A DNA stretch of 64,000 bases. Source: an uncultured Gammaproteobacteria bacterium (GTDB lineage: Bacteria > Pseudomonadota > Gammaproteobacteria > UBA4575). Positions 4,233 through 57,862 of this stretch are shown here, piece after piece (position 1 is the first letter of the stretch; every line of letters begins with the position of its first letter). A program made the translations under genes and the position numbers. The DNA is taken from positions 306,168 through 370,167 of the forward strand of contig CALSUC010000001.1 in the NCBI GenBank assembly GCA_943789445.1, read 5' to 3'. A model generated the notes under the pieces. The model did not search any database. It was not told the origin of the DNA and worked only from the letters and a program-made list of their open reading frames with translations.

Positions 4233-7200
4233 ATGACTAGTCCACATCGCTCGCTACTGGCTAGCCGCCACTTTCTACCTTTGTTTTGTGTCCAATTTCT
4301 GGGTGCGTTTAACGATAATATCTTCCGCTTTGCCCTGCTAACACTGATTACCTATCAGTTTAGTCAGACTGAAGGCTTTGATCCGGCAAAGTTGACGATG
4401 CTGGCTGCGGGCCTCTTTATCCTACCTTTTTTCTTATTCTCAGCGAGTGCGGGTCTGCTGGCAGATCGGTATTCAAAGACGCTATGTATTCGCTATATCA
4501 AACTCTTCGAGCTGCTCATTATGCTCTTTGCGGCCTTAGCGCTAGATCAGCAATGGTGGTATTTACTGTTTTTCTGTCTGGCCTTAACTGGCCTGCAGTC
4601 AGCACTCTTTGGCCCGGTAAAGTATGCCATCTTGCCGCAGTTGTTAGCACGTCAGGAATTACTCTCTGGTAACGCCTGGGTGACCGCTGGCACGTTTGTA
4701 TCGGTGCTCCTAGGGACTATGTTGGGTGGTCTATTGGTTATGGCTGAGAGTGGCCGTCTATGGGTTGCTGTGGTGCTCTGTACGGTGGCTTTGCTCGGTT
4801 ACCTCGCAAGTCTCTTAATACCTAAAACGCTACCAGCAAATAATCAAACAGCGCTGTCATTTAACTTTATTGCGAGTACCGCGCGAGTGATCAGCAGTGG
4901 TTTCGCAAATGCTGAAATTCGCCCGGTGATGTTGGCAATTTCCTGCTTCTGGTTATTTGCCTATGTCATTCAAAGTCAGTTGGCGCCGATGTGTTTACAA
5001 TTGTTGGCGGCAGATGAAACGGTAACGGTATTATTTTTAACCCTGTTTACGTTAGGTATCGCTACCGGTTGCCTGCTCTGTAGTCGATTGCTAAAAGGCA
5101 AGATCAGCCTGCGTTGGGTGCCATTGGCGGCAATCGTCATGTCTTTATTCTGTTTTGATCTATATGTCTTCGTCAGTGCTTATGAAAAAACCATAGGGCC
5201 TCTATTGGCGTGGCGCTATATCCTCGCTGAGCCACACTATTGGCGTCTGATCTTAGATATTTTTATGATTGCACTAGCCGCTGGCTTTTATATTGTGCCG
5301 CTGTATAGCTATCTGCAACATAGTGTTGATGAGAGTGTGCGTGCACAGGTGATCGCAGCGAATAATATTCTCAATGCCCTGTTTATGGTGACGGCATCGA
5401 TCCTAGTCATTACGGCACTATCTAGCGGTTTTGATCTAGCCGATATTTTTTTCTTTCTGGCCTTATTTAATTTGAGTGGCGTGTTTTTCATGATTAAAGA
5501 CATACGAGATTTCTTGACTCGCTTAGACCGTTTCCTGTTACGTCTATTCTTCCGTTTTGAAGTGCGAGGCCTAGAACATTACCCAAAGGACGATACACCG
5601 ACCGTCATCATCGCCAATCATGTTTCATTTTTAGATGGGCCGTTGCTGGTAGCGGCATTACCTGAGTTACCTGTTTTTGCCATTAATCGGGAAGTGAATC
5701 AGAAATGGTGGGCGAGTATGTTTACTCGGTTTTATGAGATGTTCCCATTAGATTCAGCCAAGCCTATGGCGACTAAGAGCCTGATCAAGATGCTACGTCA
5801 GGGGCGTAAAGTAGTGATCTTCCCAGAAGGGCGGATCAGTCATACTGGTCATTTGATGAAGCTCTATGATGGGCCGGGTAAGATTGCAGATATCGCTGGC
5901 GCACAGTTACTGCCAGTGCGCATTGATGGCGCGCAGTATACGTCCTTCGGCCGTGTGACTGGGGGCAAGAAGTTGCGCTGGTTTACTAAGGTGACGGTCA
6001 CTATTTGTAAACCGCAGGCCTTAAAAATTGCACCGGAATTACACTCCAAGGCGCGGGTGGCAAGCCTGCGTGATCGTGTCTATCAGGTGATGACTGAGAT
6101 GATGCTACAAACCTCAGTATCCAAACAAACCCTATTTCAAAGCCTGCAGACTTCACTGCATCGTAATGGCCGTGGCTATGCGATTCTGGAGGATATTAAT
6201 CGCCAGAGCATCACCTTGGGTAAGATGCAGTTGGCAAGTTTGGTCTTGGCAAATGCCTTACGCCCAATGCTACAGGCTAAACAGCCTGTGGGTGTCTTGC
6301 TGCCTAACACTATCCCTACAGCAGTTTGCTTTTATGCACTGCAGTCACAGAGTAGGGTGGCGGCGATGCTTAATTTTTCAGTTGGGCGTGCCGCCTTGCG
6401 TGCCGCTATAGAAACTGCCGAAATCAAACAGGTGATTAGCTCACGCCGATTTATTCAGTTGGCTGAGTTGGGTGAATTGATAGCTGAGATTGAAGACTTG
6501 GTTGATATTATTTATCTGGAAGATGTTAAGACCAAAATTGGTTTGGGGCATAAAGTCACTGCGTTGTTTACTGTCGCCACAGGTCTGGGTTTGCAACGTG
6601 ATCAAGGTGATTGCCACGACCCTGCGGTTATCTTATTTACCTCAGGTTCAGAAGGGATGCCAAAGGCCGTTGTCCTGAGTCACCATAATCTGTTGTCGAA
6701 TCAGGCACAGGTGAATACGGTGATGGATTTTGTGCCACAGGATTGCTTTTTTAATGCTTTACCTTTATTCCATTCTTTTGGTCTAGGTGTTGGCTTGATC
6801 TTGCCGGTTGCTAGTGGCATTCGTACGTTTCTCTATCCGACACCACTGCACTTTAAGCAGATCCCAGACATGGTGTATGACACGCGTGCCAGTGTTATTT
6901 TTGGCACCGACACTTTTTTATCTGCCTATGCGAGACATGCAGCGGCACAAGATTTTAAATCGCTGCGTTATGTTATTGCAGGCGCAGAAAAGCTTAAGGC
7001 CAGTACGCGCGAGTTGTGGCTGAAAAAACACGGCAAGCGTATTCATGAGGGCTATGGTTTAACTGAAACCTCTCCGGCATTGAGTATCAATACAGATGCC
7101 TATGGCAAAGAAGGTAGTGTTGGTAAGTTATTGCCAGGGATAGAGCATCGTTTAGAAAAAGTTGAAGGCATTGAGCAGGGACATAGACTCTGGGTTCGAG

Positions 7201-7646
7201 GTGCGAATATCATGTTGGGTTATATGAAGCATGAACGTTCAGGTGTGCTGCAAGCACCTGAAGATGGCTGGCATGATAGCGGTGATATTGTATCGATTGA
7301 TGCAGACGGTTTTTTGCATATTGTAGGTCGCGCAAAACGCTTTGCTAAAATCGGTGGAGAAATGATTTCATTGGCGCAGTTAGAACAGTGGCTGGCGGAT
7401 GATCTGCCTGAGGCTGATCATTGTCTGGTCGCAGTTGAAGATGAACGTAAGGGCGAGAGATTGGTGCTATTAACGACCCATGTCGGATTGCAACGTCAGC
7501 AGCTACAAAAGGTTATTCAAGCGTTTGGCGGCTCTGAGTTAATGTTGCCACGGACGATAGTCTGCAGAGATGCATTGCCTCTGCTTGGTAGTGGTAAGTT
7601 TGATTACGCGACGATGCAGAAGATTGCTCAGCAGGCATCAGACTAA
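4233..7646 (+). CDS. aas: fused lysophospholipid transporter LplT (MFS) / 2-acylglycerophosphoethanolamine acyltransferase / acyl-ACP synthetase Aas
   Basis: 1137 aa. N-terminal ~400 aa is an MFS transporter with ~12 TM helices. Middle has the PlsC-type HxxxxD motif (ANHVSFLDGP). C-terminus has the AMP-binding motif (FTSGSEGMPKAV) and an acyl-ACP synthetase-like tail. Confidence 0.85.
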   Translation: MTSPHRSLLASRHFLPLFCVQFLGAFNDNIFRFALLTLITYQFSQTEGFDPAKLTMLAAGLFILPFFLFSASAGLLADRYSKTLCIRYIKLFELLIMLFAALALDQQWWYLLFFCLALTGLQSALFGPVKYAILPQLLARQELLSGNAWVTAGTFVSVLLGTMLGGLLVMAESGRLWVAVVLCTVALLGYLASLLIPKTLPANNQTALSFNFIASTARVISSGFANAEIRPVMLAISCFWLFAYVIQSQLAPMCLQLLAADETVTVLFLTLFTLGIATGCLLCSRLLKGKISLRWVPLAAIVMSLFCFDLYVFVSAYEKTIGPLLAWRYILAEPHYWRLILDIFMIALAAGFYIVPLYSYLQHSVDESVRAQVIAANNILNALFMVTASILVITALSSGFDLADIFFFLALFNLSGVFFMIKDIRDFLTRLDRFLLRLFFRFEVRGLEHYPKDDTPTVIIANHVSFLDGPLLVAALPELPVFAINREVNQKWWASMFTRFYEMFPLDSAKPMATKSLIKMLRQGRKVVIFPEGRISHTGHLMKLYDGPGKIADIAGAQLLPVRIDGAQYTSFGRVTGGKKLRWFTKVTVTICKPQALKIAPELHSKARVASLRDRVYQVMTEMMLQTSVSKQTLFQSLQTSLHRNGRGYAILEDINRQSITLGKMQLASLVLANALRPMLQAKQPVGVLLPNTIPTAVCFYALQSQSRVAAMLNFSVGRAALRAAIETAEIKQVISSRRFIQLAELGELIAEIEDLVDIIYLEDVKTKIGLGHKVTALFTVATGLGLQRDQGDCHDPAVILFTSGSEGMPKAVVLSHHNLLSNQAQVNTVMDFVPQDCFFNALPLFHSFGLGVGLILPVASGIRTFLYPTPLHFKQIPDMVYDTRASVIFGTDTFLSAYARHAAAQDFKSLRYVIAGAEKLKASTRELWLKKHGKRIHEGYGLTETSPALSINTDAYGKEGSVGKLLPGIEHRLEKVEGIEQGHRLWVRGANIMLGYMKHERSGVLQAPEDGWHDSGDIVSIDADGFLHIVGRAKRFAKIGGEMISLAQLEQWLADDLPEADHCLVAVEDERKGERLVLLTTHVGLQRQQLQKVIQAFGGSELMLPRTIVCRDALPLLGSGKFDYATMQKIAQQASD

Positions 7647-7660
7647 GGGCGCTATACGGT

Positions 7661-8479
7661 CTATTGTTCGAGTAATTTTCGCCAATCGATACTGTTATCA
7701 GCAAAGACTAGGAAGCCTGGGTTTAGCAGTGATTCTTTGTTGTACTGTAAGGGCTCTAGTTGCAGGTTGGTGAGGAAGCCACCAGCTTCTTCAACGATGC
7801 TCTGAGCGGCTGCAGTGTCCCACTCCCAAGTAGGGCCAAAGCGTGGGTAGAGATCAATACTGCCCTCTGCAACGAGACAGGACTTGAGTGAGCTACCACG
7901 TCTGATCATTTCTTGCCCACCAAGACGTTGCATAAAACGGATCAACTTTTCACCCTGGGCTGAACGACCACCACAAGTCCGCATCGGCTGTTGTGCTTGT
8001 GGTGCGACATGGATCGCCTGAGAGGCCTCCTGTCCGATCTGCTTACTGGCCCCTAGGCCGCTAGCCGCCACATAGAGTACTTTGTCTGCAGGTAGATAGA
8101 TGACGCCTAGGATAGGTTTTTGTTGTTCGATGAGGGCGATGTTAACGGTGAAATCAGGTCGGTCGTTAATGAACTCACGGGTGCCATCGAGTGGATCCAC
8201 CAGCCAGAATGGTCCCCATTGTTTGCGCTCTGCAAAATCGTATAACTCAGATTCTTCGGATAATATCGGTAGTTTCGGCGAAAGCTTGTTTAGTCCTTGT
8301 TGAATGATTTGATTGGCCGCTAGATCAGCAGAGGTCACCGGTGATTTATCTTCTTTGCGGAAGACTTCATACTCTGAGCGGTAGTATTGGAGGATGGCTT
8401 CGCCTGCTTGCTTGGCGATTTCGCTAGTTGCCTGCAATAGTTCGCTTAAATCCTTAGCATCGAAATTTGTTTTTGCCAT
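7661..8479 (-). CDS. cysQ: 3'(2'),5'-bisphosphate nucleotidase CysQ (inositol monophosphatase family)
   Basis: WLVDPLDGTREF metal-binding motif; length and N-terminus typical of CysQ. Confidence 0.85.
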   Translation of the reverse strand: MAKTNFDAKDLSELLQATSEIAKQAGEAILQYYRSEYEVFRKEDKSPVTSADLAANQIIQQGLNKLSPKLPILSEESELYDFAERKQWGPFWLVDPLDGTREFINDRPDFTVNIALIEQQKPILGVIYLPADKVLYVAASGLGASKQIGQEASQAIHVAPQAQQPMRTCGGRSAQGEKLIRFMQRLGGQEMIRRGSSLKSCLVAEGSIDLYPRFGPTWEWDTAAAQSIVEEAGGFLTNLQLEPLQYNKESLLNPGFLVFADNSIDWRKLLEQ

Positions 8480-11368: not shown

Positions 11369-11704
11369 TTAGACCATATCTTTCAAACCTTTTAAAGGCA
11401 GAATTTTAACGGCCTTACGGGCAGGTTTTGCTGCAAATACAGTCTCTTCGCCAGTGAAAGGGTTAATACCTTTACGTGCTTTAGTAGCAGGCTTCTTAAC
11501 AGACTTAATTTTGCAGAGACCTAGCACGTTGAATAAGCCTGAACCACGTGGCTTAAGTTCTTTCGCAATGAGTTCTTCTAGCGATGTGAAAACAGCCGCG
11601 ACTTGCTTGCGAGTGAGTTCAGTATCGGTAGCGATTGCATTTAGAATTTCTGATTTTGTTGGTGCTTTTTTTACAGCCGGAGCTGCTTTCTTTTTAACGG
11701 CCAT
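11369..11704 (-). CDS. HU-family DNA-binding protein with a lysine/alanine-rich N-terminal extension
   Basis: HU/IHF core (NAIATDTELTRKQVAAVFTSLEELIA ... GINPFTGEE) preceded by MAVKKKAAPAVKKAPTK; GAGGA Shine-Dalgarno sequence upstream. Confidence 0.8.
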   Translation of the reverse strand: MAVKKKAAPAVKKAPTKSEILNAIATDTELTRKQVAAVFTSLEELIAKELKPRGSGLFNVLGLCKIKSVKKPATKARKGINPFTGEETVFAAKPARKAVKILPLKGLKDMV

Positions 11705-54877: not shown

Positions 54878-56431
54878 GTGACAATTTCAAAGACACAGAT
54901 GGAAATCAGTAGCACTAAAATCAAACAACTCGCAGAGATGATTCCGGCGACCAATGTCTACGACGTGGCCGATGTCTCGGCGTTGACCTTTGCTAAGCGA
55001 TTGAGTGATCGCCATAGCAACCAAGTGTGGTTGAAACGTGAAGATCAACAGAGTGTGTTTTCATTTAAGTTGCGCGGTGCCTATAACAAAATATCCAATC
55101 TTTCTAAGGAGCAATTACAAGCAGGTGTGATTGCAGCCTCTGCAGGTAATCATGCGCAGGGTGTTGCCTTAGCCGCACAGCGTTTGAAGATTAATGCGCA
55201 AATCGTCATGCCAACCACCACACCACGAATCAAGGTCGAGTCAGTACGCGCGATGGGTGCTGAAGTAGTGTTGTATGGCGATAATTATGATGAGGCCTGC
55301 GGACATGCCTTAGAACTTGTTGCTACATCGGCACAAACCTTTATTCATCCTTACGACGATATGGCCGTCATGGCCGGGCAGGGCACAGTCGCAAAGGAGA
55401 TCTTAGAACAATTTGAATCTGATATAGATGCGGTGTTTATTCCAGTAGGTGGTGGTGGCTTGATTGCTGGCATGTCTGCATGGATACGCACGCATTCACC
55501 AAAGACCAAGATTATTGGTGTTGAACCAGCAGATGCACCAACCTTACACGCGGCTATGGCAGCACAAGAGCGCGTTATTCTCGAGCAGGTCGGTATCTTT
55601 GCCGATGGTGTTGCAGTAAAGCAGATTGGGGAAAATACATTTGATGTGGCGCGCGAAACGGTGGATGAAGTGATCCTCGTTTCTATTGATGAGATGTGTG
55701 CTGCGATACATGACATTTTTGATGACACACGCGTGTTATCTGAGCCTGCTGGTGCGCTGGCCGTTGCCGGTATGAAGAAATACATCACTAGGGAGAACTG
55801 TAAAAAGCAAAATCTAGTGGCGGTTAATTCTGGTGCTAACGTTAATTTCGATCGCTTGCGCCATGTGGTTGAGCGCTCTGAGGTTGGCGAGGGGCGTGAA
55901 GGTCTATTTGCGGTAACGATTCCAGAAGAGAAGGGTAGTTTTTTACGGTTCTGTTCAATTATTGGAAGATGCAGCATCAGTGAATTCAATTATCGTTATT
56001 CGAAGGCCTCCGAGGCACATATCTTCCTGGGCGTGAAATTTGAGCATGCACAGACAGAAAAAATCGCGATGATCGAAAGGCTGGCGGATAACGGCTATGC
56101 GGTTGTCGATATCTCGGATAACGAGATGGCAAAGCTGCACTTGAGACATCTAGTTGGTGGTCATTCACCTGAATTAGAAGATGAATTTTTAGTTCGCTTT
56201 GAATTTCCAGAGCGCCCTGGGGCCTTGCTGCAGTTTTTAGAAGGCATGGGTTCGCGATGGAATATTAGTCTATTTCATTATCGGAATCATGGCTCTGCTT
56301 ATGGGCGTGTGTTGGTTGCTGCACAGGTGGCAGCACAGGATCGTGATGCGTTTAGGGTCTTTTTAGACGATTTGGGCTATAGGTATTATGAAGAATCAGA
56401 CAACCCCGCCTATTCTCTATTTTTGAGATAG
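54878..56431 (+). CDS. ilvA: biosynthetic threonine dehydratase (threonine ammonia-lyase)
   Basis: PLP site SFKLRGAYN, two C-terminal ACT-like regulatory domains, ~510 aa. Exact start uncertain among several N-terminal Met codons. Confidence 0.9.
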
Positions 56432-56433
56432 CA

Positions 56434-56465
56434 TAAAAAAAGGGCCCTGTTAGGGCCCTTTTTAG
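56434..56465. terminator. bidirectional rho-independent terminator
   Basis: AAAAAAAGGGCCC-TGTTA-GGGCCCTTTTT between convergent ilvA and the histone-like gene. Confidence 0.8.
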
Positions 56466-56477
56466 GTCTTACTCAGC

Positions 56478-56972
56478 TTATTTTCGTTTAGCTGGAGCTT
56501 TTTTCTTCGCTGCTACCTTTTTCTTAGGCGCCGCTTTTTTCTTTGCTGCTACCTTTTTCTTAGGTGCTGCTTTTTTCTTTGCTGCTACCTTTTTCTTAGG
56601 TGCTGCTTTTTTCTTTGCTGCTACCTTTTTCTTAGGTGCCGCTTTTTTCTTTGCTGCTACCTTTTTCTTAGGTGCCGCTTTTTTCTTTGCTGCTACCTTT
56701 TTCTTAGGTGCTGCTTTTTTCTTTGCTGCTACCTTTTTCTTAGGCGCCGCTTTTTTCTTTGCTGCTACCTTTTTCTTAGGTGCTGCTTTTTTCTTTGCTG
56801 CTACCTTTTTCTTAGGCGCCGCTTTTTTCTTTGCTGCTACCTTTTTCTTAGGTGCTGCTTTTTTCTTTGCTGCTACCTTTTTCTTAGGTGCTGCTTTTTT
56901 CTTTGCTGCTACCTTTTTCTTAGGCGCCGCTTTTTTCTTCGCAGTTGCAGTCTTGCGTTTGATGGCCATCAA
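56478..56972 (-). CDS. histone H1-like lysine/alanine-rich nucleoid protein made of tandem 12-aa repeats
   Basis: 164 aa: MMAIKRKTATA + 12 x (KKKAAPKKKVAA) + KKKAPAKRK. Strong GGAGG Shine-Dalgarno sequence; bidirectional terminator immediately downstream. Confidence 0.8.
   Translation of the reverse strand: MMAIKRKTATAKKKAAPKKKVAAKKKAAPKKKVAAKKKAAPKKKVAAKKKAAPKKKVAAKKKAAPKKKVAAKKKAAPKKKVAAKKKAAPKKKVAAKKKAAPKKKVAAKKKAAPKKKVAAKKKAAPKKKVAAKKKAAPKKKVAAKKKAAPKKKVAAKKKAPAKRK
56497..56945. repeat. 36-bp tandem direct repeat array (~12.5 copies), in-frame within a CDS
   Basis: Unit GCTGCTACCTTTTTCTTAGGYGCYGCTTTTTTCTTT repeated head-to-tail. Copies differ only at two synonymous wobble positions (GGCGCC / GGTGCT / GGTGCC). 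Confidence 0.95.
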
Positions 56973-57135
56973 ATATTCCTCCGAACTCGAATGTTAATAT
57001 AAGAACGAAATTGAGTATAAACAACAAAAGTAAAAAAGCTACTTTTTTTAGTTTCAAATTAAGTGTTAGGAATAACTATTTTTTTATAATTTTAGAACGC
57101 AGATAAAATTTAATGCAGTATTCGCATCGAAAAAT

Positions 57136-57585
57136 TTATTCCATCGTTAATATCAAGTTCCATTCGTCTTCACTTACTGGCATAACGGATAAGCGATTAC
57201 CTTTGCGGACTAAAGCCATGTCCTCTAATCCCTTTGTTTCACGCAGTTCTTGCAGACTAATAACGCGTTTCATCTTGCGCTTATATTTAACGTCGACCAT
57301 AAACCAACGGGGCTTATCTGAGTCACTTTTGGGATCGTAATGCTTATCTTTTGGATCAAATGCGGTGTGGTCTGGGTAACTTTCTTTGTGAATAGTCATC
57401 ACGCCAACAATACCAATTTCATCGCAATTTGAATGATAGAGAAATGCTAGATCACCTATTTTCATTTGATCACGCATCATGTTGCGCGCTTGATAGTTGC
57501 GTACACCATCCCAATGCTCAACTTTATCTCGTTTTAGATGATCGATGCTGTATTCGCTGGGCTCTGACTTCATTAACCAATATTG
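57136..57585 (-). CDS. EVE (PUA-like) domain protein
   Basis: ~150-aa EVE-domain pattern (MQYWLMKSEPSEYSI...GDLAFLYHS). Start set at internal Met. Confidence 0.7.
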   Translation of the reverse strand, partial: QYWLMKSEPSEYSIDHLKRDKVEHWDGVRNYQARNMMRDQMKIGDLAFLYHSNCDEIGIVGVMTIHKESYPDHTAFDPKDKHYDPKSDSDKPRWFMVDVKYKRKMKRVISLQELRETKGLEDMALVRKGNRLSVMPVSEDEWNLILTME

Positions 57586-57674
57586 CATAATGATTCTCGC
57601 TGATGACTGACCTGAATCACTAAACAATTAGCGATAGGTGATGTGTTTAAGATTGGGGGATTGACTCGCTTTAA

Positions 57675-57862
57675 GAGGGCGCTCTCCAGAGTACCGTGGT
57701 TTTCCGCGTACCTTGAACCAGAGGTTCAAGTGGGACTGTGGTTGACAGTGTTAGGCTTTCCGCAGAACGGATATGCACACTACTATCAAACCGAACAACC
57801 CCGAGGTGTGTTAATAGGCTCAAGGGGATTAACGGCTGACTCACAAATACTTCAGAGGCGCA
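57675..57862 (-). ncRNA. ssrS: 6S RNA (SsrS)
   Basis: Minus-strand transcript aligns by eye to E. coli 6S RNA: UCCCCUUGAGCCUAUUAA vs UCCCCUGAGCCGAUAUU; GAAAGCCUAACACUG vs GAAGCCUUAAAACUG; CUUGAACCUCUGGUUCAAGG vs CUUGAACCAAGGGUUCAAGG. Lies directly downstream of zapA as in E. coli and Pseudomonas. Ends approximate. Confidence 0.8.

Follow-up and report, generated by a model that had tools for sequence, protein, structure and literature searches.

The 64,000-nucleotide stretch of DNA analyzed here (the window) comes from an uncultured Gammaproteobacteria bacterium (GTDB lineage UBA4575; GenBank assembly GCA_943789445.1, contig CALSUC010000001.1, positions 306,168 to 370,167 of the forward strand). 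Convergent with ilvA, it carries a small gene, here called the repeat gene, which is built almost entirely from a 36-bp in-frame tandem repeat and encodes a lysine- and alanine-rich protein with the composition of a histone H1 tail. The order on the strand of the repeat gene is zapB, zapA, 6S RNA, an EVE-domain gene, and the repeat gene itself, with ilvA and rpiA on the other side (Table 1). Read codon by codon, the product consists of MAIKRKTAT, 12 copies of AKKKAAPKKKVA, and AKKKAPAKRK, a diverged partial 13th unit that forms the C-terminal end and is followed by TAA. The 12 complete units span 56942 down to 56511 in codon register, and 144 of the 163 residues fall in exact 12-residue repeats, each unit being composed of AKKKAA plus PKKKVA. 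Tandem Repeats Finder describes the array with a period of 36, 96% matches, 0 indels, and a score of 809, and it reports no second tandem array in the whole window. Variation within the array is confined to the third positions of the neighboring Ala codons 5 and 6 (GCA/GCG), and copy 1 and the partial copy at the end begin with the Ala codon GCG instead of GCA; every DNA difference between the window units is synonymous. An earlier reading made from the sequence alone (the sequence-only reading) had described the coding sequence as almost entirely twelve 36-bp copies with synonymous differences only, a description that Tandem Repeats Finder and the codon table bear out. The identical 163-residue protein is encoded on the ENA contig ERZ10646659:contig_16797.

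Table 1. Features of the repeat-gene locus and other features of the window
Feature	Position	Strand	Basis or remark
Repeat-gene CDS	56478..56969	-	163 aa + TAA; ORF list, codon table, composition
36-bp in-frame tandem array	56497..56939	-	Tandem Repeats Finder, 12.3 copies
Shine-Dalgarno sequence GGAGG	56978..56982	-	8 nt 5' of ATG; sequence reading
5'-untranslated-region block TTAAC(A/G)TT	56990-56997	-	between the -10-like hexamer and the Shine-Dalgarno sequence
-10-like hexamer TATACT	57014..57019	-	~45 nt upstream of ATG; invariant in alignment A1
Upstream block, A-tract AAAAAAA (57043-57049) + GTAGCT (57037-57042)	57037..57049	-	alignment A1
Hairpin AAAAAGGGCCC-taaca-GGGCCCTTTTTTT	56435..56463		between convergent stops of repeat gene and ilvA
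ilvA (threonine dehydratase)	54878..56431	+	Pfam PALP and Thr_dehydrat_C; convergent with repeat gene
EVE-domain gene	57136..57588	-	Pfam EVE, E 4.5e-62; directly upstream, same strand
6S RNA (ssrS)	57680-57861	-	Rfam, 80.5 bits
HU-family protein	11369..11704	-	Pfam Bac_DNA_binding (PF00216), residues 16-111, E 5.8e-15
Open frame with K/R-rich stretch	5309-5578	-	contains KRKNRRNRKRSKRVK

The only start-bearing open reading frame (ORF) across the array lies on the minus strand and runs from 56478 to 56972, the bounds first given for the gene. The minus-strand ORF stands, but its start does not: ATG 56969 is conserved and was taken as the true start because the orthologues do not share the TTG at 56972, which L131 and L133 lack. 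At the Shine-Dalgarno position, GGAGG or GGGGG is kept in all seven aligned orthologues, and the 166-bp spacer to the upstream EVE gene is AT-rich (GC ~0.35), both the ribosome-binding site and the AT-rich upstream region having been noticed before. On the 3' side, the hairpin lies ~15 nt beyond the repeat-gene stop in a region (56425-56480, minus strand) that folds as RNA with -21.1 kcal/mol (z = -3.3 versus shuffles). It is placed between two convergent genes and therefore probably acts as a bidirectional intrinsic terminator for both the repeat gene and ilvA. A frame-disrupting error in the tract had been named as a possible sign of a pseudogene; the gene is intact, with its ribosome-binding site and probable terminator.

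How does the array vary among close relatives? Neighboring genes were used as anchors because a protein search gave compositional matches only, and alleles fetched through the EVE neighbor came to 41 loci, with EVE proteins 93 to 100% identical to that of the window. Among assemblies with 99.5 to 99.9% identical flanks (the range for L090 to L098 against the window; ~90% for L002), there are two arrays of 12 units, those of the window and of contig_16797, and two of 14 units, the closed allele of ERZ10646689:contig_32392 (L096) and that of L098, a SPAdes contig of ERZ807182 with nearly the unit order of L096. The window and contig_16797 differ by 27 mismatches in 16,312 aligned bases, 11 of which crowd into the 443-bp array (binomial p = 5e-11), indicating that the GCA/GCG unit order differs between the two 12-unit arrays; no fetched contig is identical to the window. 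The 12-versus-14 contrast agrees with the earlier expectation that protein length is probably polymorphic in a population. Both the 36-bp unit and an 18-bp half unit are multiples of 3, and a change in repeat number therefore alters the length of the protein and not its frame. Hence, the dynamic part of the sequence-only reading holds as in-frame length polymorphism, and its phase-variable part, on/off switching at a contingency locus, does not.

Other closed alleles are shorter, with 7 units (L097), 6 units (L002, the same as L107, and L083), 5 units (L085 and L089), 4.5 units (L115), 4 units (L086, L106, and L123), or 1 unit (L092, L108, and L121). These were down-weighted because most short-read contigs break or carry N gaps in the array: 24 of the 41 related contigs, some of them up to 383 kb, stop in or at it (among them L093, L094, L099-L105, L111-L114, L118-L120, and L124-L130), and 5 have 100-N gaps inside it (L090, L109, L110, L116, and L122). 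The closed alleles of 1 to 7 units from short-read (de Bruijn) assemblies are probably collapsed, and the use of the 1-, 4-, 4.5-, 5-, 6-, and 7-unit alleles as proof of large swings in copy number was dropped, the array being an assembly breakpoint. Our copy-number claim is based on the contrast of 12 and 14 units, together with truncated arrays in which 8 or more units are already present (L124). The alleles of L084 and L117 are frameshifted, in L117 only 7 nt from the contig end, and these frameshifts may be assembly or sequencing errors.

The units of different clades differ in a clade-wide manner at c5, c6, and c12, named after the Ala codons (5, 6, and 12 within the unit) whose third positions they are. 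All units of the window clade have A or G at c6 and A at c12, all units of the P0092 clade (EVE protein 97% identical; includes L002) have T at c6, and all units of the P0099 clade (EVE protein 93% identical) have A at c5, T at c6, and C at c12. Since a clade-specific synonymous state is fixed throughout the units of each clade, the sequences clearly point to concerted evolution of the arrays, with repeated gain, loss, or conversion of units. Among 190 units from 46 distinct alleles, units that are not independent samples, there are 343 synonymous versus 4 nonsynonymous differences from the consensus. Nonsynonymous changes thus make up ~1% of all unit differences, clearly suggesting that the protein unit is preserved by purifying selection. 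Copy-number differences and concerted evolution together match the earlier proposal of recent or ongoing expansion and contraction, for which slippage would be the presumed mechanism.

Deletion of an 18-bp half unit, leaving KKKVAAKKKVAA at unit 2, is found in several independent assemblies. Half-unit alleles are present in L082/L127, L087/L112, L111, L115, L122, and L126. The KKKVAAKKKVAA half unit is at the second unit in five alleles from two clades (EVE proteins 99% and 97% identical to the window's), and in L115, from a third clade (93%), the half unit is at unit 4. The shared half-unit allele could be either an old polymorphism or a recurrent event.

The Lys codons of the unit show a pattern of their own. 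The order AAG AAA AAA ... AAG AAA AAG is nearly invariant over the 190 units, with one of the six Lys codons varying in 5 of them; it holds A-runs to 6 or fewer and avoids the canonical slippery heptamer A AAA AAG, and both alternative frames meet one stop per unit. Programmed -1 frameshifting on the Lys codons was considered and set aside, since the heptamers of the unit read G AAA AAG and G AAA AAA instead of A AAA AAG.

An IlvA search of 185,579 species genomes returned L002 with 96% identity and a next best match of 63% or less. The order rpiA-ilvA-(x)-EVE-zapA-zapB-ygfB-pepP is widespread among IlvA loci, also where the lysine-rich gene is missing. With ilvA as the anchor of this conserved slot, synteny was followed across 80 genome loci, 13 of which carry, convergent to ilvA, a gene for a small K/R-rich, D/E-free protein. 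One of the 13 carriers is a cultured bacterium, Thiohalophilus thiocyanatoxydans DSM 16326 (L041), and positional orthologues occur in Thiohalophilus, Thioalkalispiraceae, Chromatiales, and other lineages. In intermediate relatives (0.35- to 2.1-Mb contigs; EVE proteins 74 to 83% identical), the N terminus MAI/VK(K)RKTA is kept and the repeat bodies differ: a (KRKTA)n pentamer body in L131, seven copies of a 45-bp unit with 96% identity in L132, and 5.4 copies of a 51-bp unit with 98% identity in L133. Remoter orthologues have periods of 39, 27/54, 69, 42/84, 81, and 18 bp with 60 to 96% identity, and a 15/30-bp period is also among the amplified units of orthologues in the EVE-gene-ilvA slot. 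The N terminus is kept in the nearer relatives only, and the slot and the upstream motif are kept further out. As far as sequences tell, this comparison shows that each lineage amplified a different basic unit in the same slot. From lineage to lineage, the proteins measure ~70 to 190 amino acids. As in many Gammaproteobacteria, the 6S RNA gene comes directly after zapA and precedes the EVE gene.

The spacer between the EVE gene and the repeat gene contains a promoter-like motif. Alignment A1 has invariant columns at A87-A93 and at T95 A96 G97, and diverged spacers keep four elements: the A-tract with TAG, TATACT, a TTAAC.TT block, and the Shine-Dalgarno sequence. The window reads GTAGCT-N17-TATACT; GTAGCT, 17 nt from the -10-like hexamer, is CTAGC or CTAGT in orthologues, and the -10 region is TTATACT in the window and CTATACT in half of the distant orthologues (six orthologues). 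The pattern CT[AG]G[ACT]-N16-19-[CT]TATACT has 12 matches in 1.86 Mb (80 loci, both strands), and 11 of them lie 30 to 57 nt upstream of the ATG of a lysine-rich gene (L003, L004, L005, L014, L022, L027, L041, L042, L045, L054, and L081). Two of these genes (L004 and L022) are outside the set from which the motif was derived, and the one in L022 had previously gone unnoticed.

(C)TATACT is the -10 consensus of sigma-S, whose promoters have no distinctive -35 element (PMC5650638, PMC3923258). The sigma-S-type -10 without a canonical -35 is a hint of stationary-phase or stress control. It stays a hint and no proof, since TATACT makes a good -10 element for sigma-70 as well. The gene in L022 (~7600-7770, minus strand) encodes a short K/R/G-rich variant of the family, MAAKKKRAKKGGKRRGKKK..., under the same promoter motif and was missed by the K/A composition filter. 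Between the -10 and the Shine-Dalgarno sequence, the TTAAC(A/G)TT block is found in the window clade and in L131 to L133, and another group of orthologues (L014, L027, L041, and L081) has the block GCTAAACTCAGTGCTCAAC in its 5' untranslated region; these blocks may be translational or RNA-level control elements.

The repeat protein (17.1 kDa) has 79 K, 2 R, 53 A, 13 P, and 12 V residues (48% K, 33% A, and 8% P), no D or E, no aromatic residues, and a net charge of ~+80. The AlphaFold2 model, made from the single sequence without an alignment, has a mean pLDDT of 61, a pTM of 0.10, and no secondary structure, which is weakly consistent with disorder. Composition and the structureless model agree with a K/A/P-rich basic tail as in eukaryotic-type linker histone H1, and the winged-helix family Linker_histone (PF00538) gave no Pfam match. 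In hmmscan against Pfam-A, no family, HC2 (PF07382) included, was found at E <= 0.01 or even at E <= 10, and no NCBIfam match was found at E <= 1; HMMER composition filters may contribute to the missing Pfam match. The sequence-only reading had likened the product to AlgP, BpH1, Hc1, and Hc2 and had proposed a profile comparison with such families. The likeness holds for composition, the lack of acidic residues included, and fails for homology, the Pfam comparison being negative.

Hc2 (HctB of Chlamydia trachomatis) and the Hc2-like proteins of Bordetella (BpH1), Burkholderia, Ralstonia, and Herminiimonas are likewise small, consist almost entirely of K/A-rich repeats with no folded domain, and vary in length by strain with intact flanks. 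In Hc2, BpH1, and the Burkholderia Hc2-like proteins, all of them DNA binders, repeat elements are duplicated or deleted in frame between strains, Hc2 measuring 165 to 237 amino acids and BpH1 182 to 206, with 14 size variants in Burkholderia (PMC2848022); the earlier statement that some H1-like proteins vary in repeat number is correct for these three. The repeat protein shares with this class the all-repeat K/A-rich architecture without a globular domain (144 of 163 residues; AlphaFold2) and the in-frame repeat-number polymorphism with conserved flanks (12, 12, 14, and 14 units and the half-unit alleles). It does not share the lysine-rich pentamer periodicity, since Hc2 and its relatives are built on pentamers (36-residue elements in Hc2), whereas the window protein has a KKKxxx hexamer and a 12-residue unit. 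It further differs in having almost no Arg and ~48% Lys. Expression of Hc2 is developmental. We do not class the window protein as a member of Hc2 because it has no HC2 match, follows a hexamer/dodecamer rhythm, comes from another phylum or class, and lies at another locus, in a different slot with a different upstream motif.

The C-terminal KPAA domains of AlgP and PhaF (Pseudomonas) also have K/A/P tandem repeats, predicted disorder, and an H1-tail-like composition. The AlgP repeats interact with DNA and also with polyphosphate (polyP) granules, and they form a mutational hot spot (PMC9239181); PhaF binds mRNA and also DNA through its KPAA region (PMC12818456). AlgP and PhaF, however, have an N-terminal helical domain and a tetramer unit with one Lys (25% K), whereas the window protein has 9 nonrepeat residues before its repeats, no KPAA motif, and no Pfam or NCBIfam match, placing it outside this family. 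Eukaryotic linker histone H1 resembles it in the K/A/P composition, disorder, and polycationic charge pattern of its C-terminal domain; unlike histone H1, the window protein has no winged-helix globular domain and no S/TPKK motifs, and its repetition is perfect. DdbA (Streptomyces), HupS/HupB-type HU, and tailed DksA and SWIB proteins also have K/A-rich tails, which in database matches show nearly the same 12-residue rhythm, but their repeats are appended to a folded domain, whereas repeats make up the window protein as a whole. DdbA condenses DNA in vitro through its H1-like domain (PMC3643593), and the K/A(/P) repeat regions of Hc2, BpH1, AlgP, and DdbA all bind or condense DNA (PMC2848022, PMC9239181, PMC3643593).

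Tails with the near-same rhythm KKKAAPKKKA(A/V)(A/V) were seen in the database proteins P0002, P0004, P0006, and P0007 (DksA-like), P0005 (SWIB), P0001, and P0003; P0002 has ~8 KKKAAPKKKAAV-type units and P0005 has KKKAAPKKKAAA units. Such matches were rejected as orthologues, their likeness being one of composition only. That unrelated proteins share the rhythm suggests a KKK-x3 hexamer module that was either selected convergently or passed between genes.

The reading that we consider reasonably probable is that of a functional, independently transcribed gene for a disordered polycation which would coat or condense DNA in the manner of the histone H1 tail, with an array evolving by slippage or unequal recombination. 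By analogy with Hc2, BpH1, and AlgP's C-terminal domain, the protein most likely binds DNA, or possibly RNA or polyP; it would compact the nucleoid and might be induced in stationary phase or under stress. As a counter-ion of ~+80 with a KKK-x3 hexamer rhythm, it would coat and condense DNA nonspecifically, and the number of units would set its length and valence. Slipped-strand mispairing or unequal recombination between 36-bp units would alter their number and occasionally remove an 18-bp half unit, and the same process would homogenize variants within a lineage, with selection keeping the amino acid unit. Over longer times, newly amplified basic units would replace whole arrays, and promoter and slot would persist. 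This is probably a new family of a known kind, the bacterial histone H1-like proteins, and not a new kind of system. Overall, the interpretation given by the sequence-only reading is supported.

Several results weigh against this reading. Pfam and NCBIfam reveal no detectable homology to any characterized H1-like protein, and the matches from a search of 5.8 billion proteins are compositional only, being K/A tails on DksA-, SWIB-, HU-, and PEP-CTERM-type proteins. A scan for consensus promoters and terminators found no minus-strand promoter (no sigma-70 match) and no terminator; the promoter-like block emerged from the comparative alignment only and the terminator from folding, the scanner having probably missed the latter since it counted the T-run into the stem. 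K/A/P repeats also bind RNA (PhaF, PMC12818456) and polyP granules (AlgP, PMC9239181), and DNA is not the sole candidate ligand. Many public copy numbers are clearly assembly-limited, and the sequencing platform is unstated for the 12-, 12-, 14-, and 14-unit arrays, which come from at least three datasets.

The array might be real but stable, with the public copy-number differences being assembly artifacts. The broken and gapped contigs are what such artifacts would leave, and the 1-unit alleles, which come from MEGAHIT or JGI assemblies, look like collapsed loops. We nevertheless find this quite improbable, as the 12- and 14-unit arrays from several datasets are closed, the two 14-unit versions are nearly identical in unit order, and the unit order differs between the two 12-unit versions; moreover, the clade-specific synonymous states in every unit require unit gain, loss, or conversion, and lineages further out have wholly different units. 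That there is no gene for this protein at all, and that the array is a pseudogene, a noncoding satellite, or coding on the plus strand, is scarcely credible. Two plus-strand frames are open across the array, one of which also makes the observed variants synonymous, but plus-strand coding was rejected because the first start codon in either frame comes no earlier than 56953, beyond the array. The minus frame, for its part, has a conserved ATG, Shine-Dalgarno sequence, N-terminal peptide, promoter block, and terminator, with nonsynonymous changes as rare as given above, and Gammaproteobacteria of different orders retain the gene in one and the same slot.

The ligand itself may be another polyanion. 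A mainly RNA-binding disordered polycation, acting as an RNA chaperone, translation modulator, or ribosome-associated factor, appears unlikely to us, even if a disordered chain of +80 would bind any polyanion and the repeat gene is just downstream of 6S RNA and the PUA-like EVE gene. That synteny is widespread without a lysine-rich gene, PhaF differs by its N-terminal domain and the lower density of its KPAA motif, no domain conferring target specificity is seen in the AlphaFold2 model, and most characterized all-repeat K/A proteins (Hc2 and BpH1) bind DNA (PMC2848022). Similar doubt attaches to a role as organizer or tether of polyP granules or of another anionic inclusion, as AlgP in Pseudomonas. 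AlgP (+55, KPAA repeats in its C-terminal domain) is enriched on polyP granules, which depend on it for being evenly spaced (PMC9239181), and a sigma-S-like -10 would suit starvation-induced polyP biology; against this, the locus showed no linkage to ppk or ppx, and the helical N-terminal domain of AlgP is absent from the window protein. Binding of RNA or polyP could coexist with DNA binding.

A more far-reaching version of the DNA-condensing reading is offered tentatively, as a possibility we would not bet on. The repeat gene would belong to a gammaproteobacterial family, widely conserved and so far undescribed, whose polylysine-like products have no domains. The family would have a promoter of its own, CTAG(C/T)-N17-(C/T)TATACT (sigma-S-type -10, no canonical -35), and the protein would be induced in stationary phase or starvation as a principal condenser of the nucleoid (or of polyP). 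Selection would act on total charge and length and not on sequence, so that lineages could discard and re-amplify units with the regulatory region and the slot left in place, and in abundant coastal marine populations the length of the array could be tuned as a trait of the strain.

The H1-like proteins known in bacteria come from a few pathogens and from Pseudomonas. The repeat protein would be a comparable one in uncultured Gammaproteobacteria that are abundant in coastal seas, and it would illustrate cleanly how composition and charge, instead of sequence, are selected in nature. Standard tryptic proteomics would probably miss it, because it has no D, E, or aromatic residues and has Lys at every second residue, and such proteins may be under-reported. 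In short-read metagenome assemblies, contigs often break at the array, and copy number collapses there. The upstream motif and the cultured carrier T. thiocyanatoxydans make the function testable.

Two other lysine-rich frames of the window lie outside the repeat locus. The protein described before as an HU with a K/A-rich N-terminal tail is a genuine member of the HU/IHF family, and its tail, MAVKKKAAPAVKKAP, resembles in type the K/A tails of the DksA- and SWIB-type proteins but is modest, with only ~15 residues. The open frame with the K/R-rich stretch (Table 1) may be an out-of-frame artifact of another gene.

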